Origin: Acidimicrobiia bacterium
GTDB taxonomy: Bacteria; Actinomycetota; Acidimicrobiia; Spongiisociales; UBA11373
NCBI GenBank assembly: GCA_041551965.1
Contig: JBFELU010000002.1
Span: 5,829 to 69,828 of the forward strand
Length of the DNA stretch: 64,000 bases
Direction: 5' to 3'
Of the stretch, positions 11,408-53,909 are shown one piece after another (the first letter of the stretch is position 1; every line of letters begins with the position of its first letter). Below the pieces are notes generated by a model. The model was not told the origin of the DNA. It saw only the letters and a program-made list of their open reading frames with translations, and searched no databases. The position numbers and the translations under genes are program-made.

Positions 11408-14400
11408 TCAGCCGCCAACGGTGATCGTGAAGATCTGCACGGCCGAAACGTCGATCCCACCGTCGGCGGTGCCGCCGTCGTCGCGGATCCGGATCTCGAG
11501 GGTGGCCGTGCCGATGCCGACCGCGACGGGAGTGAAGGTGAGGGTCCCATCACCGGCCACTGCGGGCAGCACATCGAAGAGACCCGGGTTGTCGTTGGCA
11601 GTCACTTCGAAGGTGAGCACCTGCCAGGCCTCATCCGGGGGACCGGCGACGATCCCGGTTCCCCAGGCGGCCGAGTAGGCGCCCGAACCTTCGGTCACCG
11701 TCACGTCGGGACCCTTGGTGAACCGGGGAACGTCGTTCACCGGCGTCACCACGATGGTGAGCATCACGGTGGGAGAGGTGTCCTCGCCGCCGTCTGCGGT
11801 CCCGCCGTCGTCGCGGAGCCGGATACCGATGAAGGCGGTGCCGGCGGCGTCGGCGGCGGGGGTGAAGCTCAGCGTGCCGTCGAGGGCGACGGCCGGGGGC
11901 GTGGCGAACAGGTCGGCATTGGAGTTGGCCACGACCTCGAAGGAGAGCGCCTGGCCGGCCTCGTCGGCCGGACCGGCGGTCATGCCGGTGGCCCAGGCCG
12001 CGGCATGGGCGCCCGAGTCCTCGGCGATCACCACGTCGAAGCCCCGATCGAAGGCGGGGGCGTCGTTCAACGCGCCGACCGCCACCGTGACCGTGGCGGT
12101 GGCGTATCCCCCGAGACCGTCGGTGATCGAGTAGGTGAAGGTGTCGGTGCCGGAGAAGTCGGCCGGAGGCTCATAGCGATAGCTGCCGCCGCCCACATCG
12201 GTGACCGTGCCGCCCTGAGCGGTCGCCACATCGAATCCCGACAGCGTCACCGGATCCAGATCGGCATCGGTGTCGTTGGCCAGCCAATCGCCCGCGTCCG
12301 AGAACACGATGGCCCCGTCCTCGAAGACCGGGAAGGGTCCGTCGGAGGTCGCGACCGGCGGGTTGTTCGTGGTGGCGTTGTTGGCGCCGCCCACGCTCGT
12401 CACCCGGGTCCCGAAGGCATCGGTGTCGATCGTGAGGGCCGCAGCGGCACAGGTCGCCGCCCCGGAGGTTGCCGGCTCCCAGCAGAAGCTGTCGTCGGCG
12501 TCCTGACCGTTGGGGGCGAGAGACAGCGATTGGCCGAACGCGACCGGGATCAGCGCCCCCTCGTTGTTGGGCAGCGGATCCCAGACCCCGAGGGCGTCGG
12601 GCGGGTTTCCGTTGCGGTTCGCCGCAGTGTCGGGCCCCCAGGCCACGAAGTCGACCAGTTCGTATCCCTCGTCGTACAGCCACAGCTCGTCGCCGGCGGA
12701 ATCGAGGAGCGTGGAGCCGCCGGCCCACAGCTCGAGATCGGTCCCGCCCACCACGTTGGTGAAGCCCGGGTTCGTCGTGGTCTGGTCGACCCCCAACCAC
12801 AGCACCGCATAGCCGCCCGCCGGGATCACGCTCCCGCCGGGGAAGGCATAGGTGAACGAGGCGGGAGCGTCGAAGGACCCGGTGATGTGGTCCGAATCGG
12901 ACAGCATCCACCCCGACACGTCGAGCGGGTGCCCGGAGGCGTTGTAGAGCTCGACGAACTCGTCGTTCTCGATGATGCCTTCCAGTCCCGTGCTCTGCTC
13001 GAAGAGAACCTCATTGATCACGGCCCGGCCCGCTTCCGGCGACAGGACGTAGTCGGTCACCGTCACGGTGACGGTCGCCGTGTCGGTCAGCGCACCGTCG
13101 GTGACGTCGTACGTGAAGGTGTCGACCCCGATGAAGGTGCCGTTGGGGGTGTAGGTACACCCGTTGGCGTCACATGTCACGCTGCCCTGAGCGGTGGCCG
13201 TCGGTCCGGACGGCACGATGCTGAGAGCGTCGCCGTCGGCGTCGGTGTCGTTGTCGACCAGTTCGGCGGCCGGGATCACCAGCGTGGCGACGAGGGCCAC
13301 CTCGAAGTCGGCCGCCGTGTCGCCGCCGTCGGGATCATCACCGGCCAGCGGGGCGTCGGCGACCGGGGTCACCGCGATCAGCACGGCGCCGGTGGCCGGA
13401 TCGGTGCCGTCGGTGACCGAGTAGGTGAACGTGTCGGCCCCGGCGAAGTCGGCGGGCGGGTCATAGCGGTACGACCCGGCGCCGAGATCGGTGACCGTGC
13501 CCCCGGCGGCGGTGATCGCATCGAACCCGGTGAGGGTGATGGCGCCGCCCTCGATGTCGGTGTCGTTCCCCAGCCAGTCGGTGGCCGCGGTGAAGGTGAG
13601 CGGGGTGTCCTCGGCGGTGGTGTACCAATCGCCGGCGGCGTTGGGGGCGTCGTTGACGGCCGACACCGTGACGGTGACCGTCGCGGTATCGCTGTCGGTG
13701 CCGTCGCTCACGGTGTAGGTGAAGGTGTCGGTCCCGCCGAAGTGGGCCGGCGGGGTGTAGGTGTAGGTGCCGTTGCCGTGGTCGACGACGGACCCGCCCG
13801 CGCTGGAGATCCCGTCGAAAGCGCTCACCGTGAGCGGATCGGCGTCGGGATCGGTGTCGTTCCCCAGCCAGTCGGTGGCGGCATGGAACAGCTTGGGAGT
13901 GTCCTCGTCGGTGGCCGCCGAGTCGTCGGTCGCTTCTGGTGGGTCGTTGACCGCACCGACGCTCACCGTCACGGTGGCGGTGTCGGTGCCGCCTGCTCCG
14001 TCGGACACCGTGTAGGTGAAGGTGTCGCTGCCGTTGAACCCTGCCGCCGGGGTGTAGGTATAGGTGCCGTCGAGGTTGTCGACGATGGTGCCGCCCGCGG
14101 TCGACGCGGCATCGAACGCCGTGATGGTGAGCGGGTCGTTCTCGGGGTCGGTGTCGTTCCCCAGCCAATCGGTCGAGGCGGTGAAGACCTTGGGGGTGTC
14201 CTCGTCGGTCGAGGCGGTGTCGTCGACGGCATCGGGCGGATCATCGACGGCGGTGACGGTCACCGTGACGGTGGCGGTGCCGGTGTTCCCGGCGGCGTCG
14301 GTGGCGGTGTAGGTGAAGGTGTCTTCGCCGGAGAACTCGGCGGCCGGGGTGTAGGTGTAGGAGCCGTCCAGGTTGTCGACGATGGTGCCGCCTTCCTTCG

Positions 14401-19623: not shown

Positions 19624-21531
19624 CTACTCCAGTCCCGCCACGTAGACGGCGAGAGCCGCCCGTTCATCGGCGGACAGGTGATCGAATGCCGGCATCGTCG
19701 ACCAGGGGCGGACCGCCCGCGGATCGGCCAGGTAGTCCGTCAGGGCGGCGGCATCGCCGGCGAACTGCCTGCTTCCGGCATGAGCGAGGTCGGGACCGAT
19801 CCGCATGAGACCCAGCAGATCGACGTCGTCGTTGGCATAGTCGCCGACCACCGAGACCGGACCCAGGCCCACGTCGGTCACGATCCCCCGCACCTGCTGT
19901 GTGTGGCAATACCAGCAACCTTCCCGGACGTAGAGGTCACGCCCGAGGGAACCGACGGGTTCCTCTTCGTGGGGACGGGTCGCCTCGGCGAGAAGCGAGG
20001 GAGGATCCCCGGTATCGGCCGCCGGGAGCACCACCACCGACACCGCCACGACGACGAACACCACTGCAATGCCGCGGAGGATGGTGCGGAGCGGAGCACG
20101 GGGGCCGTCGACCCCGACGTCCTCATCGAGACCGGCTCCGCCCAGCGTGACCAGGAAGCCGAGCAACAAGAAGAGGGCGGCGATGACCACCAGGCCGAGC
20201 CCGACCACCTGGGTCACCTGCAACCCCTCCAGTGGCACCACGGAGCTGCGAAAGGCTTCGCCGACATTGGCCGCCGAGTCCGGGCTCACCGACCCGACCC
20301 AGGTGTAGCCCTGCTGGAGACCGCCGATCCAACGAGAGGCGAGGACCGTGCCCAGCCCCGCCGCCAACGCCCCGATCTGCACGGCGCCGAGAGCACGGGG
20401 CCACGAACGATTCGAAGCCGCATGAACGGCGGCAAAGGCAAACGCCGTGGCGGCGCCGAAGAGCGCCAGGACCTCGACGGATCCCTCCCACAGTGTGAAG
20501 TGGAGGACCGAACTCGCACCGCGAAGCGACCCGATGAAGAGATGGATCGCCGTGATCACCACCAAGCCGACACCGATGACCGACAACTGGACCGATCGCG
20601 ACTCTGAGACCACCGCCCACCGCCCCCGCAGCGCGTGCGCGAAGTCGGCGGCGATGGTGAACGCCGCCACGATGAGACCGGCGCCGAAAAGCACCGGCAC
20701 CGTCTCGAGCCAGTCCGGCGTCGGTCCGTATTGGAGCTCCCGAGGAGCCATCCACAGCCAGGAGAAGAGCAGCGACCAGAAGCCGATCGCACCGAGCCGA
20801 GGATGAAAGGACCAACCGGTCGACCGGCCGACCAGGTAGTAGGCGATACCGATGCCGAGCATCGCCGGGCCGAGGCCGCCGATCACCGTGGCGGCGAACC
20901 GCCCCTGCAGTGCCGCAGGAACACCGTCGAGCCCGGGGATCGCTCCGGTCACGAAGCCCGCCCATTGCAGCCAAAGTCCGGCCACGACATACCAGGCCGC
21001 CGTGGGCAGCCCCTCGGTCGACCCCCGCACGGCTCGCGTGACGGCCGCGGCCATTGCCAACAAGCCGACTGCGACCGCGGCGTCGGACCACCAGGGGAGC
21101 TCGAGCAACCGGCCGCCGGCGCTCTCACCGAGGAGGATGCCCGCCGTTCCCGCGCCGAGACCACCCGCGACCGCCAGCAGGCCACCCACGGTCAATGCAG
21201 GGGCCGGCCGTTGCCCGCCGAGCCGGGGAATCACCCAGATCGCACCACCGGCCAGGCCGAGAGTGAGCCAACCCACCACCACGGCATTCAACGACGCGGG
21301 CAGGAGCCGCCCGTACGCGAGGTACTCCTCTCCGGCCAGGAAGTCGGGCCAAACGAGCTTGGCCGCAGCGGCGGCATACGCGGCCGAGCCGATCAACAGC
21401 AGCACGACGGCCACCGCCAGGTAGAGGCGGGCGATCCCGGACGGAGCCATACCGGTGGCGGCGTTCGGGGATTCGATGGTGTCGGTGGCGGGCACTCCCC
21501 CGTCCCTCCGTCGTGTGTCGGCCGAGAACAT
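19624..21531 (-). CDS. Fused CcoN-like 12-TM domain plus CcoO/FixO-like monoheme cytochrome c (cbb3-type oxidase-like; catalytic His ligands apparently absent)
   Basis: 636 aa from the ATG at 21531 (MFSADTRRRDGG); the upstream part of the 1027-aa track ORF is an artifact overlapping plus-strand genes. A ~450 aa polytopic domain with a WW motif is followed by a TM anchor, then RDLYVREGCWYCHTQQVRG...IGPDLAHAG...RPWSTMPAF. This matches the CcoO signature (IYIREGCYxCHSQ...GPDL...MPsY). The membrane domain has only 5 His in total, no HH pair, and the WW motif is followed by SD rather than GHNA. Confidence 0.72.
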   Translation of the reverse strand: MFSADTRRRDGGVPATDTIESPNAATGMAPSGIARLYLAVAVVLLLIGSAAYAAAAAKLVWPDFLAGEEYLAYGRLLPASLNAVVVGWLTLGLAGGAIWVIPRLGGQRPAPALTVGGLLAVAGGLGAGTAGILLGESAGGRLLELPWWSDAAVAVGLLAMAAAVTRAVRGSTEGLPTAAWYVVAGLWLQWAGFVTGAIPGLDGVPAALQGRFAATVIGGLGPAMLGIGIAYYLVGRSTGWSFHPRLGAIGFWSLLFSWLWMAPRELQYGPTPDWLETVPVLFGAGLIVAAFTIAADFAHALRGRWAVVSESRSVQLSVIGVGLVVITAIHLFIGSLRGASSVLHFTLWEGSVEVLALFGAATAFAFAAVHAASNRSWPRALGAVQIGALAAGLGTVLASRWIGGLQQGYTWVGSVSPDSAANVGEAFRSSVVPLEGLQVTQVVGLGLVVIAALFLLLGFLVTLGGAGLDEDVGVDGPRAPLRTILRGIAVVFVVVAVSVVVLPAADTGDPPSLLAEATRPHEEEPVGSLGRDLYVREGCWYCHTQQVRGIVTDVGLGPVSVVGDYANDDVDLLGLMRIGPDLAHAGSRQFAGDAAALTDYLADPRAVRPWSTMPAFDHLSADERAALAVYVAGLE

Positions 21532-21639
21532 TAGCCCCACCGTCCGAGGTCCACGCGGGGCGGGACGATTGTCTCGAACAGACCGGGCGGCGTCAAAGCA
21601 CGTCGGCCCGGTTCTCCCCCGGGCGGCGGGGCGCGTACA

Positions 21640-34041: not shown

Positions 34042-34581
34042 TCAGTCCTGCTGCAGCAACTCGTGGGGATCGGCCAGACCTTCGCGATAGCGGCGGGTCA
34101 ATTCGTGCTGCACCGCATCATGGGCTTCGAACACCGCTCGTCGCTGCCGCGATATCTCGCCCTCGGCCTCGGTGAGCGTTGCCTGGATCTGCTCCAACTC
34201 CTCGTCGTCGATCTCGTGGAGATGCACGAGGAAGTCGTCGCCGAGCACGCGGTCGATGGCCCGGCGACCCCGCCCCGAGAACTCCGGGGCATCGATCTCG
34301 AGCCGGCGCGAGGCAACCGGTGCGGTCGACGGCGTGGCTCCGGCCAGGATGTCGGGGAGCGCCTCGATCAGGCTCCGCTCTTCCTCACCGCTCCGGCGTC
34401 GCATCTCGAAGGACAGCAGATCCATGCGTCCGTGCAGCAGGCGGCGGTAGTAGGACAGCTCGGTGTCCAACTCATCGCAGATACGGCGACGACGGCGGAG
34501 CTCGTCGATGCCGATCTCGGTGAGCTCGGCCACGAACTCGGGGGATTCGACCAGGTCGATACGGCGGCGGTTCTTTGTCAC
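34042..34581 (-). CDS. Coiled-coil protein with two RsiG-like c-di-GMP-binding helix motifs (putative anti-sigma factor RsiG homologue)
   Basis: 179 aa, charged and helical. Motif 1: D39-x3-S43-x2-R46-x3-H50-x3-D54 (DTELSYYRRLLHGRMD). Motif 2, exactly 100 aa later: E139-x3-S143-x2-R146-x3-F150-x3-D154 (EGEISRQRRAVFEAHD). Both have the spacing of the RsiG E-x3-S-x2-R-x3-Q-x3-D motif. Confidence 0.5.
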   Translation of the reverse strand: MTKNRRRIDLVESPEFVAELTEIGIDELRRRRRICDELDTELSYYRRLLHGRMDLLSFEMRRRSGEEERSLIEALPDILAGATPSTAPVASRRLEIDAPEFSGRGRRAIDRVLGDDFLVHLHEIDDEELEQIQATLTEAEGEISRQRRAVFEAHDAVQHELTRRYREGLADPHELLQQD

Positions 34582-34613: not shown

Positions 34614-35759
34614 TCAGCATACGGCCCGGACCGAAGGATACGGGTTCACGGCAATGGTGCCACCCGGAAAGATCCCGAAGTGGAGGTGATAGGCCCCCGG
34701 TGCCGGATTCCCCGTGTCTCCCACCGTCCCGATCACGGTTCCGATGGTGATGGTGTCGCCGCTCCCGAGATCGGCGGCGAACGCGTCGAGGTGGGCGTAG
34801 AAGTAAGACACGCCGTAGTCGGAGTGCAGCCAGGCAGTGTTGCCGCCGAGCACACTCGATCCGTATCGAATGACGCCGTTGGCCACCGCCACCAGCGGCG
34901 TGCCCCTCGGCGCCATCATGTCCGTCCCCCGGTGGGTGCGGCCCCCGGAACGAGGAGCACCCCACGTGTCGATGAAGGACGAGGGCCCGGCCACCGGACA
35001 GATGAACCCCGGGGTGAGATCGAACCCGATCCCGGCCGCCGGTCCCGCCGTCGCCTCCAGGAGAGCCCGGCGAATCCGCTCCTCCTCCTCGCGTCGGCGG
35101 CGCTCTTCTTCCTCGCGTCTCCGCTGCTCGGCCAGTTCGCCTTCGACCTGGGCCAGATCCTGATCTGCCTCGGCGAGACCTTGCTCCGCTTCGGCGAAAA
35201 GCTCGTTCATGCGGGCCGCCACCGCCTCCGCTTCGAGCCGCAATTCGGTTACCCGATCCGAGTCGGCCGCGACCTGCTCTTCGAGCCGCTCCATCTCGTC
35301 GGTGATCGCCAGCAGCGACGTCAACGCTGCGGCATCGGCCTCGATGGCACCGGCGAGGATCTCCCGGGCGATGACCGCCTGCTGCACCCGATCGGAGGCA
35401 AACACGAGCGATACCTCGTCGGCCCGTTCTCCCCGCATGTAGGCGTCGACCGCTCGCAGCCGAACGGTCTCCCTGAGATTCCCGACCTCGTTCTCGTAGG
35501 TATCGATGCGGCTCCGCAGCTGACCCATCCGGAAGGTGAGCTCTTGGAACTCCGCGTTGATCTCCTCGTAGCGAGTCACGGCCGCCTCGAGGTCCTGGAG
35601 GGCAGCGGCCCGCTCGGTCGCCGCCGCCTCTCGATCGCGTCGGGCCTCCTCAACCTCTTCTTCCGTCACCGAACGCGCCGGGACCGCCGTCGCCATCAGC
35701 CACAACAGCATCAGGCCGACGGCGGTCAGCAGCCGACGGTTGGCGAAGCGCATCTTCAT
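34614..35759 (-). CDS. M23 family metallopeptidase with N-terminal signal/TM and long coiled-coil (EnvC/RipA-like architecture)
   Basis: Start MKMRFANRRLLTAVGLMLLWLMATAVPA at 35759. About 200 aa of coiled coil (EQRRREEEERRRREEEER), then the LytM domain HRGTDMMAPRGTPLVAVANGV...AWLHSDYGVSYFYAHL...GDTGN...HLHFG. Confidence 0.8.
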   Translation of the reverse strand: MKMRFANRRLLTAVGLMLLWLMATAVPARSVTEEEVEEARRDREAAATERAAALQDLEAAVTRYEEINAEFQELTFRMGQLRSRIDTYENEVGNLRETVRLRAVDAYMRGERADEVSLVFASDRVQQAVIAREILAGAIEADAAALTSLLAITDEMERLEEQVAADSDRVTELRLEAEAVAARMNELFAEAEQGLAEADQDLAQVEGELAEQRRREEEERRRREEEERIRRALLEATAGPAAGIGFDLTPGFICPVAGPSSFIDTWGAPRSGGRTHRGTDMMAPRGTPLVAVANGVIRYGSSVLGGNTAWLHSDYGVSYFYAHLDAFAADLGSGDTITIGTVIGTVGDTGNPAPGAYHLHFGIFPGGTIAVNPYPSVRAVC

Positions 35760-35839: not shown

Positions 35840-36820
35840 TCAGGCGAGCAGCCGCAGCACGAGCCAGAACGGGCCCGAGGCCATCAGCAGCCCGTCGACG
35901 GCGTGGAAGCTCCCCGGCATGGCCCCCGACGAGTAGAAGCCCCCGGTGCGAAGCAGCGAACCGATCGTCCTCCCGGCGACCAGAGCCACCGCCGCTGCCG
36001 CCGCCGCCACCAGGCCCAGCACGAGGTCGTCCATGAGGGTCGCGCCCCCGATCCCACCCGCCGCCAAGGCGGCGAGCGAGGCGACGACCATCGAGTCGAG
36101 GCCGGGGACGTTCGCTTGGGCGGCAAACCACCCGAGTACCGCCGCAGCCACGGCCACGACCAGGAAGGCGAGAGCATCGTCCTCCGACCTCAGCCGGAGC
36201 AGCACGAGGGCCGAGGAGCCGAACCCGGCGATCAAGGCCAGCATCGCGCTGCCCGCCACCGATTCGATCGGACGGAGGTGTGGTCTCACGACCGCCCACA
36301 CCAGGGCGACGAGTCCGGCCCCGATCGTGGCCCCGGCCATCCCGGCACCGCCCCACCGGTAGGTGGCGAGCGCTCCGCCCACCACGCCGACCAGGAGGGG
36401 ACCGAAGCCGAGATGGACGTCGCGGCTGCGGGCCGACTCGGTGATGTCGTAGGCCCACAGCAGACCGGTGAGCACGACGGCGACGGTGAACCACTGCAAC
36501 GAAACGGCGTTGGTGACGAAGAGGGCGAGCGCGATCGCGAGGACGAGGCCGATCTCCATGCCGATGGGAGAACGAATCGTGGTTGCGCCCCCCGAAACCG
36601 GGGGAATGAGGGCAACCTCGTCGTCATCACCGACGGGGGTTTCCCCATCGGCCTGCTCCCCGTTCACCCACACCTGGGCGGCCGGAAGGCCCCGCTCGAA
36701 GGCAGGCCCGAATCGATCGGCCGCCCGGCCGAGCACCTCGGCGACCGACGATCCCTCGATCTCCGCCGACGCCGAGCCGGCCGCCTCGCGGAGATTCGCA
36801 AAGAGACGCAGGCGGGCCAT
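35840..36820 (-). CDS. MoaD/ThiS-like beta-grasp domain (ending PPVSGG) fused in frame to a ~245-aa polytopic membrane domain
   Basis: N-terminal 78 aa MARLRLFANLREAAG...VWVNGEQADGETPVGDDDEVALIPPVSGG is a sulfur-carrier fold with a diglycine end. No stop follows; the ORF continues as ATTIRSPIGMEIGLVLAIALALF... with 7-8 hydrophobic helices. The junction sits in a run of 6 G (6 C on the plus strand, ~36590). Confidence 0.55.
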   Translation of the reverse strand: MARLRLFANLREAAGSASAEIEGSSVAEVLGRAADRFGPAFERGLPAAQVWVNGEQADGETPVGDDDEVALIPPVSGGATTIRSPIGMEIGLVLAIALALFVTNAVSLQWFTVAVVLTGLLWAYDITESARSRDVHLGFGPLLVGVVGGALATYRWGGAGMAGATIGAGLVALVWAVVRPHLRPIESVAGSAMLALIAGFGSSALVLLRLRSEDDALAFLVVAVAAAVLGWFAAQANVPGLDSMVVASLAALAAGGIGGATLMDDLVLGLVAAAAAAVALVAGRTIGSLLRTGGFYSSGAMPGSFHAVDGLLMASGPFWLVLRLLA

Positions 36821-36918: not shown

Positions 36919-37821
36919 TTGCGTCGGGTGGAACGGATCGGCATCGTCGAAGTGGGGCCGCGCGACGGTCTTCAGGCCGAAGATGCGGTACTGACGGTCG
37001 AAGATCGCCTTGCCCTGATCGAGTTCTTGGCCGGCGCCGGCGCCTCACGCATCGAGGTCGCCTCGTTCGTCCGGCCGGATCGAGTTCCGCAGATGGCCGG
37101 AGCGGAGGAGATCTGTGCCGGGCTCGACCCCGGTCGAGCGTGGTCGGCGATCGGCCTGGTGCTCAACCGCAGGGGGATGGAGCGGGCCCTGGCCACCTCG
37201 CTCGACGAGGTCAATCTCGTCGCCTACGCTTCCGACGGCTACAGCCTCCGCAACACCGGCAGACCGGCCGCCGACCGGAATGGAGAGGTCCTGGAGTCGA
37301 CCGCCGCAGCCGTTGCCGCGGGGCGCCGGACGGGCGTGACGGTCGCGGTGGCCTTCGGCGACCCCGTCGACGGCGAGGTCCCGGCCTCGAGGCTCGCCAC
37401 ATTGGCGGCCGATCTGCAGGACGCAGGTGCTTCCGAGGTCAATCTGGGCGACACCATCGGCGTGGCCGTTCCCTCGATGGTTTCCGATCGGGTTGCCGCC
37501 GTGCGTAACGCGGCACCGGGCCTGTCCCTTCGATGCCACTTCCACAACACCCGCAACAACGGCTACGCCAATGTGCTGGCGGCGCTCACCGCAGGCGTCG
37601 ACGCCGTCGACTCGTCCATCGGCGGGTACGGCGGTAGTCCGTTCTCCCCGGGAGCCGGCGGCAACGTGGCCACCGAGGACCTCGTGTGGATGCTGGAGCG
37701 CATGGGCAGCACCACGGGCATGGACCTCGAGAGGCTGATGGCCACTTCGGTCTGGCTGGCGGAACGTCTCGGCGACCGCCGGCCCCCCTCCCTACTTCCT
37801 CGCGCTGGACCGTTCCCCTAA
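36919..37821 (+). CDS. HMG-CoA lyase-like (pyruvate carboxyltransferase/DRE-TIM) family protein
   Basis: VERIGIVEVGPRDGLQAE...RIEVASFV...HFHNTRNNGYANVLAALTAGVDAVDSSIGGYGGSPFSPGAGGNVATEDLV are HMGL-family signatures. Confidence 0.8.
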   Translation: MRRVERIGIVEVGPRDGLQAEDAVLTVEDRLALIEFLAGAGASRIEVASFVRPDRVPQMAGAEEICAGLDPGRAWSAIGLVLNRRGMERALATSLDEVNLVAYASDGYSLRNTGRPAADRNGEVLESTAAAVAAGRRTGVTVAVAFGDPVDGEVPASRLATLAADLQDAGASEVNLGDTIGVAVPSMVSDRVAAVRNAAPGLSLRCHFHNTRNNGYANVLAALTAGVDAVDSSIGGYGGSPFSPGAGGNVATEDLVWMLERMGSTTGMDLERLMATSVWLAERLGDRRPPSLLPRAGPFP

Positions 37822-39014
37822 GAATCGTCTTCGTCGGTCGGTTCGACGAGTGAGACCGGCTCCCGGGCCGGGTCCCCACCCTCGAACCTGGCGATCACGT
37901 CGCCCTCTCCGAACGAGCCGTCGCCGCTGAAATCGATGTGGATCTCGATCCACACCGCGGCCGGAATCTCGACCGGCGGTTCGAGGGGCAACACCACATC
38001 GCGGTAGGTGCCTCGCTCGAGGAACTCGCCCACCACCAGCGTGTCGCCCGGGGAGCCGTCGACGTCGGCCCGTACGACCAAGAAGCCGCCGCTGGGAAGC
38101 GTGACCGAGTCGATGGTCACTTCGACGCCCTCCGACTCCTGCTCGGAGACGAGGATGACCGCGGGAGCTCGGGGGACAGCGGTGATCGGCGCCGAGTCGG
38201 CGGCCTCGAACCCATCGATCCGGAGGGCCACCACGTCCTCGACGTCGGAGCCTTCGATGTCGGCGCCCTCGATGTCCAGGGCGCCGTTGCGGTTGCGATC
38301 GACGATCAACTGGGCCCACAACGTTGCCGAGATCTCGAGGCGCTCTGCGAGCTCGACCACGACATCGGTGTGCGACCCCTCCGACAGGAGCTCACCGACA
38401 CCCACGATCTCACCGGGGGCGCCTGCCTGATCTGCTCGCACGACGACGAAGCCGGCGGCGGGAAGCAGCACGTCGGCCACGACGACTTCCACGCCCAGTG
38501 ATCGCTGCGCCTCGAAGACCACGTCGGCCGGGGTCAGAGCGGGCAGCAATCCCACCGTCGCCGATGTGGACGCAGTCTCGCCGTTGGCTCGCGTCGCAGG
38601 GACGTCGACGAAACCGTCCGGCGGCTCGAACGTGAAGACGCCGTCTCGATCCATGTCGATGTGGACCATGGCGTGCACAACGTCCTCCCCCTCGATCGGC
38701 ACGAAGAGAGGAACCGAGACGTTGCCGATGACTCCCGCCGAGAGCCTCTCCCCGACACCGATGACCTCCCCCGGAGCCCCGGCTTCGTCGCTGTGGAGCG
38801 CGACGAACCCGTCGGACGGCAGCGACACGGACCTGACGATCACCGTGGAACCCTCGGACAACTGGTCCTCGAAGACGAGGTCTGCCGGGCCGGTGGCGGG
38901 AGGGAGGGCATTCGGGTCACCGACCGTCGTCGTGGTGACACCGGAGGACTCGTAGGCGCAGGCCCCGACCATCAGGGCGAGTGCCATCACCAGGATTCGA
39001 CGGGGAGCGATCAC
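37818..39014 (-). CDS. Lipoprotein with three ~115-aa tandem beta-rich repeats; third gene of the znuA-znuB operon
   Basis: Signal peptide plus lipobox (LMVGAC). Three repeats follow the pattern S[VL]xLPxxGF[VL]VxxADxAGAPGExxGVGExLSxG...VxLxxxxExxAxxWxxxxxDxxRDGxxxFE. The stop lies 7 nt from the znuB start on the same strand. Confidence 0.7.
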   Translation of the reverse strand: MIAPRRILVMALALMVGACAYESSGVTTTTVGDPNALPPATGPADLVFEDQLSEGSTVIVRSVSLPSDGFVALHSDEAGAPGEVIGVGERLSAGVIGNVSVPLFVPIEGEDVVHAMVHIDMDRDGVFTFEPPDGFVDVPATRANGETASTSATVGLLPALTPADVVFEAQRSLGVEVVVADVLLPAAGFVVVRADQAGAPGEIVGVGELLSEGSHTDVVVELAERLEISATLWAQLIVDRNRNGALDIEGADIEGSDVEDVVALRIDGFEAADSAPITAVPRAPAVILVSEQESEGVEVTIDSVTLPSGGFLVVRADVDGSPGDTLVVGEFLERGTYRDVVLPLEPPVEIPAAVWIEIHIDFSGDGSFGEGDVIARFEGGDPAREPVSLVEPTDEDDS

Positions 39015-39020
39015 GGCGGC

Positions 39021-39878
39021 TCAGGGTACTCCATGGACCGAGTCCCGGACCTCGGTGCGCCGGAAGCGTCGCACCATCCGATCGACGATCAGCACGGCGA
39101 AGAACACCGCCACCGCCAGACCGGACATCGTCGCCCCGGCCGCCGTATCCAGGTGGAACGAGATGAGGAGCCCGGCCACGACCTCGGCCGCGCCGATGAC
39201 GGCGGCCGCCGCCATCACCGCGGGAACACGGTGCACCACCAGCACGGCGGTGGCCGGAGGGGCGATGAGCAGCCCGAACACCAACAGGGCCCCCACCGCT
39301 TGAAACGAGGCAACGACCGCCACGGTGATCAGGCCCATCATGACGAGGTGGGCGACCCGGGGCCGCAGCCCGAGCGCCTCCGCCTTCTCTTCGTTGAACG
39401 ACAGCGCCAGCAGCGGCCGGTAGAACCACGCCACGCCGATGATGACGGTCCCGGCCGCAAGCGACTGCAGCACGAGGTCTCCGGTCGTCGTGCCGAGAAC
39501 GTCGCCGAAGAGGATGGCGACGAGGTCGACGGCGAACGATCCGCTGCGGGAGATGAGGATCACGCCGAGAGCGAGCATGCCCACGAACAGCAGCCCGATG
39601 GCGGTGTCCTCGGTCAACCTGGTCGTCCGGTGCACCAGGGCGATGGCTCCGATCATCACGACGGCAGCGACGGCCGCCCCCACGGCGAGATTCACATCGA
39701 GGAGGAAAGCGACGGCGACCCCGGGGAGGATGCCGTGGGCCAGCGCATCACCCATGAACGCCAGGCCGCGGATGATGACCCAGGTGCCCACCACCGAGGT
39801 CGTGGCCACGGCGAGGATTCCCGACAGCAGCGCTCGCTGCATGAAGTCGTAGGAGAACGGTTCGGTCAGCCAGTCCAT
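39021..39878 (-). CDS. znuB: Metal (Zn/Mn) ABC transporter permease, ABC-3 family
   Basis: 285 aa, 8-9 TM, ZnuB/MntB-like (LLSGILAVATTSVVGTWVIIRGLAFMGDALAHGILPGVA). Confidence 0.85.
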   Translation of the reverse strand: MDWLTEPFSYDFMQRALLSGILAVATTSVVGTWVIIRGLAFMGDALAHGILPGVAVAFLLDVNLAVGAAVAAVVMIGAIALVHRTTRLTEDTAIGLLFVGMLALGVILISRSGSFAVDLVAILFGDVLGTTTGDLVLQSLAAGTVIIGVAWFYRPLLALSFNEEKAEALGLRPRVAHLVMMGLITVAVVASFQAVGALLVFGLLIAPPATAVLVVHRVPAVMAAAAVIGAAEVVAGLLISFHLDTAAGATMSGLAVAVFFAVLIVDRMVRRFRRTEVRDSVHGVP

Positions 39879-39885
39879 GATCGCC

Positions 39886-40785
39886 TCATCGGGTCAGAGC
39901 CTCGGTGATCCGCTCGGCATCGGTGCGCAACAAGGAGAGGTACGTCTCGGCCCCCGACCCGGGCGGCCCCAGGGAACCGGTATACAGGGGCACGACCGCC
40001 ACGTCGAGTCCGGTTTCGGCGGCGACCGTATCGGCGAGATCGGTGGGCCGGGTGGAATCGACGAAGACGGCCGACACGCCGGTGGCAACGATCGTGCGTA
40101 CGAGGTCGGCGAGATCGCCGGCACTGGGTTCGGCCAGTGTGGAACCGCCAGGGACGATCACCCCGACGACGTCGAAGCCGTAGCGGTCGGCGAAGTAGCC
40201 GAGGGAGTCGTGATCCGTCACCAGGAGCCGTTGCGCCGGCGGAATCGCGGCCACCATGACGGCCACCTCTTCGTGGACCGCCAGGATCTCCGCTCGATAG
40301 GCCGCCGCCGCGTCTCGCCACTCGGCCGCAACATCCTCATCGAGGTCGGCGAGGGCCTCCCCGATCAGTGTGACCGCCGTCGCCATCCGCACGGGATCGA
40401 GCCACACGTGGGGATCGAACGAGCCCGATCCGAGGACCAGGGGATCGACCGCCGGACCGACTTCGAGCACCGCCACTCCGTCTCCCCGAGCCCCCTCCAC
40501 TACGTCTTCCAGCCCCTCCTCGAGACCGAGGCCGTTGATCACCACCAGTTCCGCATTCCGGAGGAGCGCCGCCTGGGCCGCCGAGGCCTGGTAGGCGTGG
40601 GGATCGACCCCTGCGGGAATGAGCACCTCGACCTTCGCCCGCCCCCCGACGATCCTGTCGGCGATGTCACCGAGGATCGACGTGGAGGCAACGACACGGG
40701 TGCCGTCGTCATCGGCGGCACCGCCCTCGCAGGCCGCCGGAAGCACCAGGAGGGGCACCATCAGCAGCGGAAGCATGCGACGCAA
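39886..40785 (-). CDS. znuA: Metal ABC transporter substrate-binding lipoprotein (ZnuA/TroA family)
   Basis: Signal peptide MRRMLPLLMVPLLVLPAAC, then TroA-fold motifs (VVASTSILGDIA...DPHVWLDP...DSLGYFADRYG). The TTG start at 40785 preserves the RR n-region; the ATG at 40776 is an alternative. Confidence 0.85.
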   Translation of the reverse strand: MRRMLPLLMVPLLVLPAACEGGAADDDGTRVVASTSILGDIADRIVGGRAKVEVLIPAGVDPHAYQASAAQAALLRNAELVVINGLGLEEGLEDVVEGARGDGVAVLEVGPAVDPLVLGSGSFDPHVWLDPVRMATAVTLIGEALADLDEDVAAEWRDAAAAYRAEILAVHEEVAVMVAAIPPAQRLLVTDHDSLGYFADRYGFDVVGVIVPGGSTLAEPSAGDLADLVRTIVATGVSAVFVDSTRPTDLADTVAAETGLDVAVVPLYTGSLGPPGSGAETYLSLLRTDAERITEALTR

Positions 40786-40830: not shown

Positions 40831-41292
40831 ATGCCCTCCACCGCCACCCTCCCCACCGACATCGAGCGGGCCGTGCGAACCCGCCTCGGTGACCGGGCGG
40901 CCCGTTTCACCCCAACCCGGCGAGCGGTGGTGGCTGAACTCGCCGCCGCAGAAGGCCCCCTGACCCCGGCCGACCTGCTCCGGCGGCTCGGAGCCCGGGT
41001 GCCGGTGTCGTCGCTGTACCGGACGCTCGCCACCCTCGACGAGGGTGGCATCGTGCACCGCACCCACGACGCCGAGGGCATCACCCGCTTCGAGTTGGCA
41101 GAGTGGCTCAACGGCCACCATCACCACCTCGTCTGCGTCGGCTGCGGCGAGGTGCGCGACATCGAGATCAACGGCGATTGGGAAAGCACCATCGCCGCCC
41201 TGGTGGGGCGGGTGGCGGCCGCCAGCGGCTATGCCGTCTCCGGCCACCGCATCGATATCGAAGGGACCTGCACCCGGTGCGCGGAGAACTAG
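40831..41292 (+). CDS. zur: Fur-family zinc uptake regulator
   Basis: 153 aa with a winged-helix N-terminus, a His-rich HHHH metal site, CVGCGEV and CTRCAE structural zinc motifs; positioned divergently from znuA. Confidence 0.8.
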   Translation: MPSTATLPTDIERAVRTRLGDRAARFTPTRRAVVAELAAAEGPLTPADLLRRLGARVPVSSLYRTLATLDEGGIVHRTHDAEGITRFELAEWLNGHHHHLVCVGCGEVRDIEINGDWESTIAALVGRVAAASGYAVSGHRIDIEGTCTRCAEN

Positions 41293-47936: not shown

Positions 47937-48042
47937 AGTCCCAAGATTTTGTGGCACTTCCTTCGCCGGACCACAACATCTTGTGGGTGTGGACAACTTG
48001 GGAAGAGCGGGTTCGGCCCGCAGGGAGACGGGAGGAGCGCAC

Positions 48043-51000
48043 ATGGGTTCGGCGAGCGGACTTCGCATCGGCCGGTTGTTCACCAAGGCAGACGAGGACC
48101 CCCTCGACAGCGTCTCGTGGAGCCGGCGCGACTCCAAGATCACCAACCCCGACGGATCGGTGGTCTTCGAGATGAACGATGCCGAGATCCCGACCGCCTG
48201 GTCCCAGGTGGCCGCCGACATCATGGTCTCCAAGTATTTCCGGAAGGCCGGTGTCCCCCAGTTCGATCGCGACGGCGCCCCGATCCTCGCCGACGACGGC
48301 TCGCCCATCCTCGGGCCGGAACGATCCGCCCGGCAAGTCATCACGCGGCTGGCTTCGACGTGGCGGTGGTGGGGTGAGCGTTACGGCTACTTCGCCTCGG
48401 AGGCCGACGCGGCCGCCTTCGAAGACGAGCTCTGCCACATGCTCGTCCACCAGATGGCGGCACCCAACAGCCCGCAGTGGTTCAACACCGGGCTCCATCA
48501 CGCCTACGGTCTGACCGGGCCGCCGCAGGGTTTCTGGTATGTCGATCCCAACACCGGCGAGCTGTGTGAGTCCCCCGACTCGTACAGCCGCCCCGCCCCC
48601 CACGCCTGCTTCATCCAGTCGATCAACGACGACCTCGTCAACGAGGGCGGGATCATGGACCTTTGGGTCCGTGAGGCTCGCCTCTTCAAGTTCGGGAGCG
48701 GCACCGGGACCAACTTCTCCACGCTGCGCGCCGAGAACGAGCGCCTCTCCGGCGGCGGCCGTTCCTCGGGCGTGATGTCGTTCCTCAAGATCGGCGACCG
48801 GGCCGCCGGCGCCATCAAGTCGGGAGGCACCACGCGCCGGGCCGCCAAGATGGTGATCCTCGACCTCGACCACCCCGACATCGAGGAGTTCATCGACTGG
48901 AAGAAGGAAGAGGAGCGCAAGGTCAGGGCCCTCATCGCGGCCGGCTATCCGGCCGATTTCAACGGAGAGGCCTACCAGACGATCTCCGGCCAGAACTCCA
49001 ACAACTCGGTCCGGGTCGCCAACGATTTCCTCGACGCCGTCATCGGCGACGAGGACTGGGAACTGCGCGCGAGGACCACCGGCGGGGTGATGAAGACGGT
49101 GCGGGCCCGGGACCTTTGGCGCCGGATCGCCGAAGCCGCCTGGGAGTGTGCCGATCCCGGGGTGCAGTTCGACACCACCATCAACGAGTGGCACACCGCT
49201 CCGGCCGGGGGCCGGATCAGGGCCTCCAACCCGTGCTCCGAGTACATGTTCTTGGACGACACGGCCTGCAACCTCGCCAGCCTCAATCTCGTGTCGTTCT
49301 ACGAGGACGACACCGGCAACTTCGACATCGAGGCGTACAAGCACGCCATCCGGCTGTGGACCGTCGTCCTCGAGATCTCGGTGACCATGGCCCACTTCCC
49401 GTCCCAGGAGATCGCCCAGGGTTCGTACGACTACCGCACCCTGGGTCTCGGCTACGCCAACCTCGGATCGCTCCTCATGCGAAGCGGCATCCCCTACGAC
49501 TCAGACGAAGGGCGCGCCATCACCGGGGCCCTCACCGCCATTCTCACCGGGGATGCCTACGCCACTTCGGCCGAGATGGCGGCGGTGCTGGGACCTTTCC
49601 CCCGATTCTCGGAGAACCGGGACTCCATGTTGCAGGTGATGCGGAACCACCGGCGGGCGGCCTACGACGCCGACGCCTCGGCGTACGAGGGAATCAGCTC
49701 GAAGATCGTGGGCATAGACCCCGATCACTGTCCGGCCCCGCTCATCGAGGCGGCCCGGACGTCTTGGGATGCCGCCGTGGAGCTGGGAGAGCAGTACGGC
49801 TACCGCAACGCCCAGGCCACGGTGCTCGCTCCGACGGGGACCATCGGCCTCTTGATGGATTGCGACACGACCGGCGTCGAGTCGGACTACGCCCTGGTGA
49901 AGTTCAAGAAGCTGGCCGGCGGCGGGTACTTCAAGATCGCCAACCAGTCGATCGAACCGGCCCTCCGAGCGCTCGGGTACACCGAGCCGCAGCGGCGCGA
50001 CCTCGTCGAGTACGTCATCGGGACGATGCGGATCGACGGTGTGCCACACATCAACCGCATCTCGCTGATCGAAGCCGGGCTGACCGAAGCCGAGGTCGAT
50101 GCCATCGAGACCACCCTGCCCGGCGTCTTCGATCTGCGGCATGCGTTCAACTTCAATGTGCTCGGGGCCGAAGCCATGAACCGTCTCGGCATCGACGCCG
50201 ACGAAGTGGCCGCTCCCGGATTCGACCTGCTGGAGCGGCTCGGTTTCACCCAACGCCAGATCGACGAGGCCAACGCCGTCATCTGCGGCCACCAGACCGT
50301 CGAGGGAGCCCCCCATCTCTTCGACGAGCACCTGGCGGTCTTCGATTGCGCCAACCGCAACGGGAAGTTCGGCACCCGCTACATCGACCCAACCGGCCAC
50401 ATCCGGGCAATGGCGGCGGCACAGCCGTTCATCTCAGGGGCCATCTCGAAGACCATCAACATGCCCCATGAGGTCACCATCGGTGAGATCGAGGACGCCT
50501 ACCGGCTGTCGTGGGAGCTGGGCCTGAAGGCCATCGCCCTCTATCGAGACGGGTCCAAGGCCAGCCAGCCGCTGTCGTCGGCCACCTCCGGCGAAGGGGA
50601 CCACACCGAGGACGAAGACGAGGCCCTCAACGAGGCGATCGACGCCGAGGCCCGGGTCGTCACCGGCGTCTTCGCCCCCGGGGTCAGCCCCACTGCGGCA
50701 TATCAGGGAGTGACCCGACCCCGGTTCCTGCTGCCGGCTCGCCGCCGCGGGTTCACCCAGGAAGCTCGGGTCGGCGGCCACAAAGTCTTCCTCCGCACCG
50801 GCGAGTACGACGACGGGACGCTGGGAGAGCTGTTCATCGACCTGGCCAAGGAGGGCGCCACCCTCCGCGGGATCCTTTCGTGCTTTGCCATCGCCGTCTC
50901 CAAGGGCCTCCAATACGGCGTGCCGCTGGAGGAGTTCGTCGACACGTTCACGTTCCACACGTTCGAGCCTCGCGGGCTGGTGGAGGGCCACCCCAACATC

Positions 51001-51477
51001 AAGATGGCCAACTCAATCGTCGACTACGTGTTCCGATCCCTCGGGCTCGAGTATCTGGGCCGCACCGATCTGGTGCAGGTCCCACCCGAGGTTGAGCTGC
51101 CCGAGCCGCCGAGCGGGCTGGCGGTGGATGCCGGTCTCCAGCTGGAGCTGACCGACTCACCCCCGATGCCCACCGAACCGGCTCCCATGCCGCCCACCGC
51201 CCCGATCTCCCATCCGGCGGTGACGGGCGATGAGGACATCAATGCCAACGGCACCAACGGGCACCACACACCGATCGTCGAGCAGCCATCCATTGCGGTG
51301 CGCTCCTCGAGTGATGCCACCGTCGCTGATGCCACCGGCCAGACCGCATCCGTCCAATCGGCTCTAGGGTCGATGATGGGCGATGCCCCGTTGTGCGATA
51401 CCTGCGGACACATCACGGTCCGCAACGGCTCGTGCTATCGGTGCCTCAACTGCGGCAACTCGATGGGCTGCAGCTGA
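48043..51477 (+). CDS. nrdJ: Class II (adenosylcobalamin-dependent) ribonucleoside-diphosphate reductase
   Basis: 1144 aa with NrdJ family blocks (RVANDFLDAVIGDEDWEL, NPCSEYMFLDDTACNLASLNL, TMRIDGVPHINR) and the C-terminal Cys cluster CDTCGHITVRNGSCYRCLNCGNSMGC. The start MGSASGLRIG at 48043 follows GGGAGGAG. Confidence 0.9.
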   Translation: MGSASGLRIGRLFTKADEDPLDSVSWSRRDSKITNPDGSVVFEMNDAEIPTAWSQVAADIMVSKYFRKAGVPQFDRDGAPILADDGSPILGPERSARQVITRLASTWRWWGERYGYFASEADAAAFEDELCHMLVHQMAAPNSPQWFNTGLHHAYGLTGPPQGFWYVDPNTGELCESPDSYSRPAPHACFIQSINDDLVNEGGIMDLWVREARLFKFGSGTGTNFSTLRAENERLSGGGRSSGVMSFLKIGDRAAGAIKSGGTTRRAAKMVILDLDHPDIEEFIDWKKEEERKVRALIAAGYPADFNGEAYQTISGQNSNNSVRVANDFLDAVIGDEDWELRARTTGGVMKTVRARDLWRRIAEAAWECADPGVQFDTTINEWHTAPAGGRIRASNPCSEYMFLDDTACNLASLNLVSFYEDDTGNFDIEAYKHAIRLWTVVLEISVTMAHFPSQEIAQGSYDYRTLGLGYANLGSLLMRSGIPYDSDEGRAITGALTAILTGDAYATSAEMAAVLGPFPRFSENRDSMLQVMRNHRRAAYDADASAYEGISSKIVGIDPDHCPAPLIEAARTSWDAAVELGEQYGYRNAQATVLAPTGTIGLLMDCDTTGVESDYALVKFKKLAGGGYFKIANQSIEPALRALGYTEPQRRDLVEYVIGTMRIDGVPHINRISLIEAGLTEAEVDAIETTLPGVFDLRHAFNFNVLGAEAMNRLGIDADEVAAPGFDLLERLGFTQRQIDEANAVICGHQTVEGAPHLFDEHLAVFDCANRNGKFGTRYIDPTGHIRAMAAAQPFISGAISKTINMPHEVTIGEIEDAYRLSWELGLKAIALYRDGSKASQPLSSATSGEGDHTEDEDEALNEAIDAEARVVTGVFAPGVSPTAAYQGVTRPRFLLPARRRGFTQEARVGGHKVFLRTGEYDDGTLGELFIDLAKEGATLRGILSCFAIAVSKGLQYGVPLEEFVDTFTFHTFEPRGLVEGHPNIKMANSIVDYVFRSLGLEYLGRTDLVQVPPEVELPEPPSGLAVDAGLQLELTDSPPMPTEPAPMPPTAPISHPAVTGDEDINANGTNGHHTPIVEQPSIAVRSSSDATVADATGQTASVQSALGSMMGDAPLCDTCGHITVRNGSCYRCLNCGNSMGCS

Positions 51478-52661: not shown

Positions 52662-53909
52662 ATGGTAGGCCGGCGTACCATCGACGCCATGCGCCGAACC
52701 GAGGAACGGCCCACCTTCGTCACCCATCTCGAGTGCAGCGGCACTGGGGAGCGACACCCGGCCGGGATGCTGCACGGGTTGTCGCGGGCCGGCAGCCCCC
52801 TCCTGGTCCGCTACGACCTTGCCGCCCTGGCCGCGACGCTCGATCGGGACGCCGTCGATGCCCGCCCCGCCGACCTGTGGCGGTTTCGGGAGTTCCTCCC
52901 GACCGGAGGCGACGTCGTCTCGTTGGGTGAGCCGGCGACGCCACTCATCAAGCTCACCCGGACGGGCGCCGAACTGGGCGCCGACCGCCTATTGGTCAAG
53001 GATGAAGGACGGCTCCCCACCGGATCCTTCAAGGCCCGGGGTATGGCCGTGGCGGTGAGCATGGCCCGGACGTTCGGCGTGTCGAGGATGGCGCTCCCCA
53101 CCAACGGCAATGCCGGGGCGGCTCTCGCCGCCTACGGAACCCGGGCCGGCATCGAGACCTACGTCTTCTGCCCCAGCGACACCCCCGAGGTCAATGTGCG
53201 GGAGACCGCCCTCCACGGTGGCCGTGTCCGGATGGTCGACGGTCTCATCGACGACTGCGGACGGTTGGTCGCCGAGGGCGTCGAGGAGATGGCATGGTTC
53301 GATGCCTCCACGCTCAAGGAGCCGTATCGAATCGAGGGGAAGAAGACGATGGGGCTCGAGTTGGCCCTGCAGCTCGGGTGGGAGCTCCCCGACGTGATTC
53401 TCTACCCGACCGGCGGCGGCACCGGTCTGATCGGGATGTGGAAGGCGTTCCGGGAGCTGGAAGCCGTCGGTTGGATCGACGGGGGCATGCCGAGGATGGT
53501 GGCCGTCCAGGCCGACGGGTGCGCACCGATCGTCCGGGCCTTCGAGGAGGGTGCCGACCGCGCCCGCCGCTGGGAGGGCGCTCACACGGTGGCCAGCGGC
53601 ATCCGCGTCCCGGCGGCCATCGGCGATTCGCTCATCTTGCGTGCGATCCGGGAGAGCGGAGGTTTTGCGATTGCGGTTTCCGACGATGAGATCCTGCGTG
53701 CCCGGAGCGATGCCGCCGGACTCGACGGCCTGCTGCTGTGCCCGGAAGGGGCGGCGACGCTGGCCGCCTACCGATCGGCGGTGGCCGGGGGCCTGATCTC
53801 GGCCGAGGAGAGAGCGGTGCTGTTCAACTGCGCCACCGGCCTCAAGTACCCGATGCCGGCGGTCGAGGGCCGCCCGGGCACACCCGCCGACTCCTCCGGC
53901 CTACGCTGA
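52662..53909 (+). CDS. thrC: Threonine synthase (PLP-dependent)
   Basis: N-terminal zinc-ribbon-like THLECSGTGERH...PLLVRYDL, PLP lysine motif GSFKARGMAV, and GGGTGLIGMWKAF. An alternative start lies 9 codons in. Confidence 0.85.
   Translation: MVGRRTIDAMRRTEERPTFVTHLECSGTGERHPAGMLHGLSRAGSPLLVRYDLAALAATLDRDAVDARPADLWRFREFLPTGGDVVSLGEPATPLIKLTRTGAELGADRLLVKDEGRLPTGSFKARGMAVAVSMARTFGVSRMALPTNGNAGAALAAYGTRAGIETYVFCPSDTPEVNVRETALHGGRVRMVDGLIDDCGRLVAEGVEEMAWFDASTLKEPYRIEGKKTMGLELALQLGWELPDVILYPTGGGTGLIGMWKAFRELEAVGWIDGGMPRMVAVQADGCAPIVRAFEEGADRARRWEGAHTVASGIRVPAAIGDSLILRAIRESGGFAIAVSDDEILRARSDAAGLDGLLLCPEGAATLAAYRSAVAGGLISAEERAVLFNCATGLKYPMPAVEGRPGTPADSSGLR

Follow-up and report, generated by a model that had tools for sequence, protein, structure and literature searches.

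A MoaD-type domain joined in frame at its Gly-Gly tail to a predicted CdsA-fold membrane domain in Acidimicrobiia

The stretch of DNA analysed here (the window) comprises 64,000 nucleotides of contig JBFELU010000002.1 from an Acidimicrobiia bacterium (assembly GCA_041551965.1). On its minus strand, at positions 35840..36820, lies a gene that encodes a protein of 326 amino acids, stop codon included in the coordinates, in which a MoaD/ThiS-type sulfur-carrier domain runs without interruption into a membrane domain with the predicted fold of CdsA, the CDP-diacylglycerol synthase. The reading frame, taken from the list of open reading frames, has a G+C content at third codon positions (GC3) of 0.87. 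The beta-grasp domain occupies residues 1-78 (36587..36820; all features of the gene are on the minus strand) and closes with IPPVSGG (...DDDEVALIPPVSGG). After Gly77-Gly78 the frame continues for 248 further residues, through a seven-residue linker, ATTIRSP (residues 79-85, 36566..36586), and then a membrane domain of 241 residues and nine predicted helices (residues 86-326, 35843..36565). The linker is predicted to be disordered, with a predicted local distance difference test (pLDDT) score below 50 for residues 75-82, and the peptide across the Gly-Gly/linker junction reads ...IPPVSGGATTIR. An earlier note on this DNA had described a MoaD-like domain of 78 residues with a terminal Gly-Gly, in frame with a polytopic membrane domain, and the Pfam match and the reading frame bear this out; in place of the seven to eight transmembrane helices that it counted there are nine. 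Public data contain an identical protein, whose annotation, 'MoaD/ThiS family' or 'molybdopterin converting factor small subunit', covers the first 78 residues only and ignores three quarters of the protein.

MoaD/ThiS proteins are bacterial relatives of ubiquitin. Residues 5-78 match the whole of the PF02597 (ThiS/MoaD) profile with 43.2 bits against a threshold of 22.5 (E 6e-11). The beta-grasp fold and the Gly-Gly terminus (Gly77-Gly78) expected of the family are both present, but the translated product lacks the free C-terminal glycine carboxylate because 248 residues follow. The NCBIfam model for MoaD, TIGR01682, gives 42.7 bits, under its equivalog cut-off of 66.15, and the NCBIfam SAMP1 model also matches under its own equivalog cut-off. 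The fusion has neither the score nor the molybdenum cofactor (Moco) gene context of MoaD proper. E. coli MoaD is 30% identical to the domain, and the residues in common are F7, E12, G15 and the PPV(S/T)GG tail; the full set retained in the N-terminal domain is F7, A8, R11, E12, G15 and PPVSGG.

The next-best matches are the stand-alone MoaD proteins of other Acidimicrobiales, which are alike in length (78 residues) and in their ...E(V/I)A(V/L)IPPVSGG end, and share 50-63% identity with the fused domain, residues 1-78 only being compared. In contrast to the fusion their genes stop directly after the Gly-Gly, two of them with two extra residues, and are set among Moco genes in moaE-moeA-moaA-moaD-moaC operons. 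These matches indicate that the N-terminal domain descends from a genuine MoaD, with the motifs intact. In a crude neighbour-joining tree without support values the operonic proteins nest among the fused domains, and the drift of the fused domain from genuine MoaD appears no greater than the drift of its orthologues from each other. Across the family the mean pairwise identity is 61% for the N-terminal domain as opposed to 42% for the membrane domain, and 56% as opposed to 29% for distant pairs, values which indicate that the former is the slower-evolving of the two.

Outside the class Acidimicrobiia the matches listed in our scan of genomes are in-frame MoaD-MoaE fusions. In five such loci (L043, L046, L048, L058 and L062), hosted by Dehalococcoidia, Thermoleophilia, Myxococcales, Paenibacillus and a Bacillota metagenome-assembled genome (MAG), MoaE follows in frame after ...IPPVSGG. 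Fusions of MoaD to a partner at the Gly-Gly are therefore widespread.

Residues 86-326 adopt, by prediction, the nine-helix CdsA fold, and we consider this part of the protein a probable divergent homologue of CdsA whose sequence lies under the Pfam threshold. The scan of the membrane domain with hidden Markov models (HMMs) that the earlier note had proposed was empty as far as Pfam is concerned, with no match for residues 79-326 even at E<=10, PF01148 (CdsA) included; the CdsA fold, which that note had not recognised, was found by other means. Alignment of the family (176 sequences) with CdsA (115 sequences) using hhalign gave a local match of 80% probability and E 1.4e-5 over 151 columns and a global match of 85% probability over 210 columns, each a single-pair comparison of home-made alignments. 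The local register is the one expected from the fold match. The match was obtained only with alignments on both sides, and hhalign against the single E. coli CdsA sequence was unsuccessful. A Foldseek search of the PDB matched the N-terminal domain only and returned nothing for the membrane domain; likewise a HMMER membrane profile found no CdsA among PDB sequences. A membrane-domain profile HMM retrieved 102 proteins from 1.84 billion cluster representatives, with no canonical CdsA among them, and tblastn detected no cdsA in the related loci examined. An alignment of the membrane domain by itself offered no segment of sufficient conservation to scan genomes with. On these comparisons the membrane part appears to form a hitherto undescribed branch of the CdsA superfamily, restricted to Acidimicrobiia.

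The structure of TmCdsA (PDB code 4Q2E) informs on the likely topology. The enzyme has nine helices, with the N-terminus in the cytoplasm, and the first part of helix M1 together with the B-loop walls a funnel-shaped cytoplasmic substrate cavity (PMC4083444). A cytoplasmic domain joined to helix 1 therefore fits this topology. By analogy, the Gly-Gly tail would be positioned at the mouth of the cytoplasmic cavity.

The fusion family has its fold in common with CdsA and with CarS (CDP-archaeol synthase, PDB code 5GUF) but the active site is different. In TmCdsA catalysis centres on the Asp219-Asp249 dyad, which binds Mg2+ and K+, with Glu222, Lys226, Lys167, Asp144 and Asp246 as accessory residues; mutation D219A or D249A removes approximately 98% of the activity (PMC4083444). 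We mapped these positions using one hhalign profile-profile alignment, backed by the fold match. Of the two metal ligands, Asp249 corresponds to Asp309 whilst Asp219 is replaced by Arg284. Glu222 becomes Gly287, Lys226 is deleted, Asp246 aligns with a variable position, and neither Lys167 nor Asp144 is retained; Arg227 is matched by Arg291. The Ser-Pro of the CdsA 'SPxKT' loop corresponds to Asp242-Pro, with the lysine lost. The metal dyad and its accessory set are thus not preserved, the HGG motif is missing, and the A and B loops are each approximately 4-5 residues shorter than in CdsA.

The family carries motifs of its own, the conservation of which was counted in 54 full-length representatives of 50%-identity clusters. 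Helix 2 contributes W122-x-x-D125 (36446..36457), the tryptophan being present in 54/54 and the aspartate in 53/54. Arg183 (36272..36274; 52/54) falls between helices 4 and 5, in a loop that the predicted topology puts in the cytoplasm. Asp242-Ser243 (36092..36097), for which the family consensus is D-P, keeps the acidic residue in 52/54. At its end helix 8 carries G283-R284-x2-G287-x3-R291 (35948..35974), with Gly283 in 53, Arg284 in 46 with lysine in three more, Gly287 in 50 and Arg291 in 53 of the 54 sequences. The last motif, P302-G303-x5-D309-G310 (35891..35917), is the counterpart of the CdsA 'PGHGG..DRxD' and has Gly303 invariant (54/54) and Asp309 in 52/54. By the topology deduced from TmCdsA this near-invariant set of polar, arginine and aspartate residues would lie on the cytoplasmic side. 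Since W122, D125, R183, D242, G283, R291, G303 and D309 are each found in at least 52 of 54 representatives, the region looks like a functional site with altered chemistry, neither a decaying one nor that of a canonical CTP:phosphatidate cytidylyltransferase. An ordinary CdsA, making CDP-diacylglycerol, would be in keeping with the shared fold, the remote homology and the nine-helix arrangement with the N-terminus inside, as in TmCdsA. It is difficult to reconcile with the lack of a PF01148 match, with a family of 102 relatives that contains no canonical member, and with the loss of so many catalytic residues, one of which, Asp219, is enough by itself to disable TmCdsA (PMC4083444). We regard a canonical CdsA function as very unlikely and reject it on the active-site residues.

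Is the fusion a genuine gene? The junction falls within a run of six G, read as six C on the plus strand (36588..36593), in the codons TCG GGG GGC of Ser76-Gly77-Gly78. The earlier note had drawn attention to this homopolymer and offered three explanations, namely cleavage after the Gly-Gly, an uncleaved ubiquitin-like domain, or a frameshift. The first two survive and are weighed below. The third, that a sequencing or assembly error in the six-G run merged two separate genes, has the position of the junction in its favour but we reject it, attaching almost no weight to it. GC3 ranges from 0.78 to 0.94 and follows a single frame throughout the junction. The stop after Gly-Gly that an indel in the run might have restored is absent; one base more or one base less gives long out-of-frame products and wrecks the frame downstream. 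Independent contigs at NCBI and at JGI encode an identical protein, and PPVSGG is in frame with a continuation of 248-260 residues at 29/29 independent genome loci. The G-run in these loci varies in length from 2 to 6 with every one in frame, so the homopolymer is most simply read as an accident of synonymous codon choice. The orthologous fusions that the earlier note suggested seeking in related genomes do exist, in these 29 loci and in more than 160 cluster representatives of the same architecture, and the gene is genuine, with conservation throughout the class Acidimicrobiia. We also considered, and rejected, a membrane domain translated separately from Met88; family members have M, L, I or F at this position, which makes a conserved internal start unlikely.

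A search of 5.8 billion proteins gave 369 homologues, of which the best 120 are all approximately 326 residues in length, with 46-77% identity over 99-100% of the sequence. Matches to the membrane profile are mostly of 320-340 residues with the membrane domain beginning at residue 83-100, and hence are fused. In a scan of 185,579 species genomes the full-length fusion was present in at least 25 species, essentially all of them Acidimicrobiia MAGs; most of these genomes are incomplete.

The Gly-Gly at the junction is retained in 165/169 fused sequences and persists down to approximately 25% identity in the membrane domain. Among the 165 members the residue that follows is Ala in 84, Thr in 61, Ser in 10, Gln in 6, Glu in 3 and Arg in 1, such that a small residue (Ala, Thr or Ser) comes directly after the Gly-Gly in 155. 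Two proteins, P0093 and P0107, have inserts of 25-50 residues rich in Gly, Gln, Trp and Glu, containing the repeated unit GEQQWGTGEQQW, that start exactly after the Gly-Gly and precede the membrane domain. The high retention, the small following residue, the disordered linker and inserts placed exactly after the motif argue that the Gly-Gly matters.

Orthologues encoded as two separate genes had been named as a finding that could count against the fusion. They occur in one robust lineage only (L092/L093) and do not refute it. In this lineage a separate MoaD-like gene of 78 residues ends PPVSGG-TAA and is followed, after a spacer of 200 nucleotides with stops in all frames, by a gene for a 264-residue membrane protein and then by M23, GNAT and GT4 genes, the same neighbourhood as that of the fusions. 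A MoaD-like gene kept beside the membrane gene in this block argues for a functional partnership and not against the fusion. A second candidate, L089, was not counted as a robust split. Here the MoaD-like gene ends GGDR-stop with the membrane gene 4 nucleotides on, and a one-base indel, which may be an assembly error in a GGGGGA run, would re-fuse them. The nearest relatives of every non-fused form are fused, and so fission and loss are secondary events of scattered occurrence. From fusion, fission and the CdsA structure we infer that the MoaD-like and membrane modules are obligate working partners.

The genomic context of the fusion is constant downstream. Across the class the order is M23 peptidase, (RsiG), (asparaginase II), (Acetyltransf_6 GNAT), GT4 glycosyltransferase, (YbjN), with the M23 peptidase after the fusion gene in nearly all loci and an opposite-strand aminotransferase between the two in some genomes. 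In the window the M23 gene (PF01551) lies at 34614..35759 on the minus strand and its product has an N-terminal signal/anchor sequence and a coiled coil. The neighbourhood represents synteny; an operon, or a functional role for the M23 peptidase, is only putative. M23 is a family of Gly-Gly endopeptidases, and we considered this neighbour as the processing enzyme for the junction but rejected it. The signal/anchor sequence should make the peptidase extracytoplasmic whereas the beta-grasp domain, judged from sequence, is cytoplasmic, and the opposite-strand gene intervenes in some genomes. An RsiG-like protein is encoded in the window at 34042-34581 (minus strand) and at the same position in L003, L005, L006, L013-L015 and others; in Streptomyces RsiG binds cyclic di-GMP and acts as the anti-sigma factor of WhiG. 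The GT4 and YbjN pair is reminiscent of what we take to be the mshA neighbourhood in other Actinobacteria.

Upstream the genes vary between genomes (MaoC dehydratase, SPFH, PAS-LuxR, alcohol dehydrogenase, aminotransferase) and comparison of these neighbours gave no functional clue. In L004, L005, L006 and L087 the stop codon of a double-hotdog MaoC-type dehydratase meets the start of the fusion or membrane-only gene, as a shared coordinate or an ATGA overlap, an arrangement suggestive of translational coupling. A MaoC-type dehydratase is also found directly 5' of the membrane-only variant P0129. In the window the upstream neighbour is a divergent HMG-CoA-lyase-like gene at 36919-37821.

Might the N-terminal domain simply be the housekeeping Moco MoaD of this lineage, cleaved free from a membrane partner whose job is unrelated? 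The fusion would then couple expression only, as in ubiquitin-ribosomal-protein fusions. The domain is highly conserved, and the operonic Acidimicrobiales MoaDs nest among its fused forms. None of the 25 fusion species recurs with a stand-alone MoaD among the best 80 loci, and among the matches listed the fusion is absent from genomes that have MoaD in an operon. We caution that co-occurrence judged on the best 80 loci, from mostly incomplete MAGs, is weak evidence. The gene neighbourhoods tell against the idea. In tblastn searches Moco genes lie by every stand-alone or MoaE-fused MoaD locus, whilst moaA/C/E and moeA lie by no fusion, split or membrane-only locus; split and fused genes are always in the M23-GT4 block. 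The split lineage, moreover, retains its MoaD-like gene beside the membrane gene, which implies a functional tie. On balance we think a housekeeping role improbable.

What, then, does the Gly-Gly do? The reading that we favour, tentatively and as something short of probable, is that the fusion protein would be a precursor, cleaved after Gly78 in the manner of the MoaD-MoaE fusions MoaX of M. tuberculosis and DR2607 of D. radiodurans. Cutting would free a MoaD-type carrier and, within the altered cavity of the membrane domain, its activated C-terminus may then work upon a membrane-bound, probably phosphate-bearing lipid substrate. As in the fusion, MoaX and DR2607 have a MoaD beta-grasp domain ending in Gly-Gly, a short linker with a small first residue and then a second functional module in frame. 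In these proteins cleavage follows the second glycine and activity depends on it (PMC4326299, PMC8832034); for MoaX the cut is between Gly82 and Ser83 (PMC4326299). Their partner is the soluble MoaE, whereas here it is a nine-helix CdsA-fold domain with no similarity to MoaE, there are no Moco genes near the fusion, and cleavage is putative.

Several observations weigh against a cleaved precursor. The 64-kb window has no ThiF/MoeB, JAMM, MoaE, MoaA or MoaC, and no protease, E1 (ThiF/MoeB), MoaE or other sulfur-transfer gene was present in approximately 35 neighbourhoods. A JAMM motif scan of the window and fusion loci produced two spurious matches only. In one subclade the Gly-Gly is missing from three representatives, which have VPSSGP or VPASGP, with proline after the glycine, and otherwise keep both domains. 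The membrane-only genes L087 and L090 have no MoaD-like gene alongside, and the membrane-only P0174 is 68% identical to the fused P0165. The fused state of the overwhelming majority would also fit a domain that is permanently tethered. Such an arrangement has a precedent in EccD of the ESX/type VII secretion systems, where a YukD-like beta-grasp domain precedes a polytopic membrane domain and YukD is not conjugated (PMC1779556).

These same observations are what an uncleaved two-domain protein would lead one to expect. The MoaD-derived beta-grasp would serve as a tethered cytoplasmic regulatory or structural domain, docking on or gating the cavity and binding partners non-covalently, and the Gly-Gly would persist solely as a flexible terminus of the domain. 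The constancy of the fusion in more than 160 representatives suits such a domain, as does a subclade that dispenses with the motif and conserves the rest of the N-terminal domain. The missing E1, JAMM and Moco genes cease to be a difficulty, and the membrane-only variants indicate that the membrane domain is able to stand alone. The resemblance to EccD, another actinobacterial protein with a cytoplasmic N-terminal beta-grasp domain and a multi-pass membrane domain, is one of arrangement; the families are different and the fusion has neither a YukD-family domain nor an ESX context. We consider the tethered domain nearly as likely as the cleaved precursor.

Several lines of evidence favour cleavage, the first three below also counting against a tether. 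The Gly-Gly is retained (165/169) even where membrane domains are only approximately 25% identical. The N-terminal domain is the slower-evolving and has not drifted from the operonic MoaDs, its divergence from them being no greater than that among orthologues. The robust split lineage stops exactly after the Gly-Gly, like a working carrier. Finally, fused MoaD proteins of Actinobacteria and Deinococcus need cleavage after the motif. DR2607 is cut by a JAMM protease listed under the distant locus tag dr_0402 (PMC8832034) and, given that distance between protease and substrate, adjacency of a protease gene to the fusion is not expected. In addition, the intact MoaD motifs sit awkwardly with a tether. 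Ubiquitin folds recruited to other roles, YukD for example, normally lose the MoaD sequence motifs.

The membrane domain might represent an enzyme of a new type that partners a ubiquitin-like or sulfur-carrier protein. We rate this proposal, which could take either of two routes, as unlikely. In the first the domain would be a membrane-embedded nucleotidyltransferase that activates the Gly-Gly carboxylate, the job of E1 carried out with a different fold. In the second it would be an acceptor enzyme, moving sulfur or the whole protein from the activated glycine onto a lipid or polyprenyl phosphate. If true, the second route would parallel in bacteria the lipidation of Atg8 with phosphatidylethanolamine, or would lead to a thiolated lipid of the envelope.

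Other genes in the window merit a brief description. On the minus strand at 11408-17398 a protein of 1996 residues has an N-terminal HD/HD-GYP-type domain (residues 149-301), approximately 11 bacterial Ig/cadherin-like repeats and a lamin-tail domain, an unusual pairing of a cytoplasmic signalling phosphodiesterase domain with extracellular repeats. The reading frame at 19624-21600 (minus strand) combines COX1, haem-copper oxidase subunit I, with a FixO/CcoO mono-haem cytochrome c domain and resembles a fused subunit of a cbb3-type oxidase. The protein encoded at 37818-39014 (minus strand), which has three DUF7282 repeats, adjoins a ZnuA/ABC-3 metal-uptake pair (39021-40785, minus strand) and a Fur-family regulator (40831-41292, plus strand); related genomes also have a DUF7282 protein beside ZnuA/ABC-3, an association suggestive of a part in the acquisition of a metal, perhaps zinc. 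At 47983-51477 (plus strand) a class II (B12-dependent) ribonucleotide reductase of 1164 residues has a TSCPD domain near the C-terminus. Its barrel matches in two stretches and, taken with the length, this could reflect an insertion such as an intein. Lastly, a 415-residue pyridoxal phosphate-dependent enzyme of the PALP family (52662-53909, plus strand), adjoining an M19 membrane dipeptidase, may be either a threonine synthase or an enzyme similar to cysteine synthase; there is no ThiS-like gene beside it.

To our knowledge the partners of MoaD/ThiS proteins, E1-like adenylyltransferases, MoaE, ThiG, CysM and JAMM proteases, are all soluble, and the CdsA enzyme fold is known only from liponucleotide synthesis. 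Our literature searches turned up no account of a MoaD-type domain linked to a membrane protein of the CdsA fold. What would be new in these Acidimicrobiia is therefore a MoaD-partner fusion in which the partner is membrane-embedded. A MoaD-type domain, its motifs and Gly-Gly under strong selection, is tied by fusion or gene adjacency to a membrane enzyme fold whose metal site appears remodelled, aspartate to arginine, and the gene belongs to a cell-envelope block away from the Moco genes. Should the tail be used, the protein would place sulfur-carrier or ubiquitin-like chemistry at a bacterial membrane, where we know of no earlier example. Should it not, the family would provide a clean case of a sulfur carrier recruited into a membrane protein.

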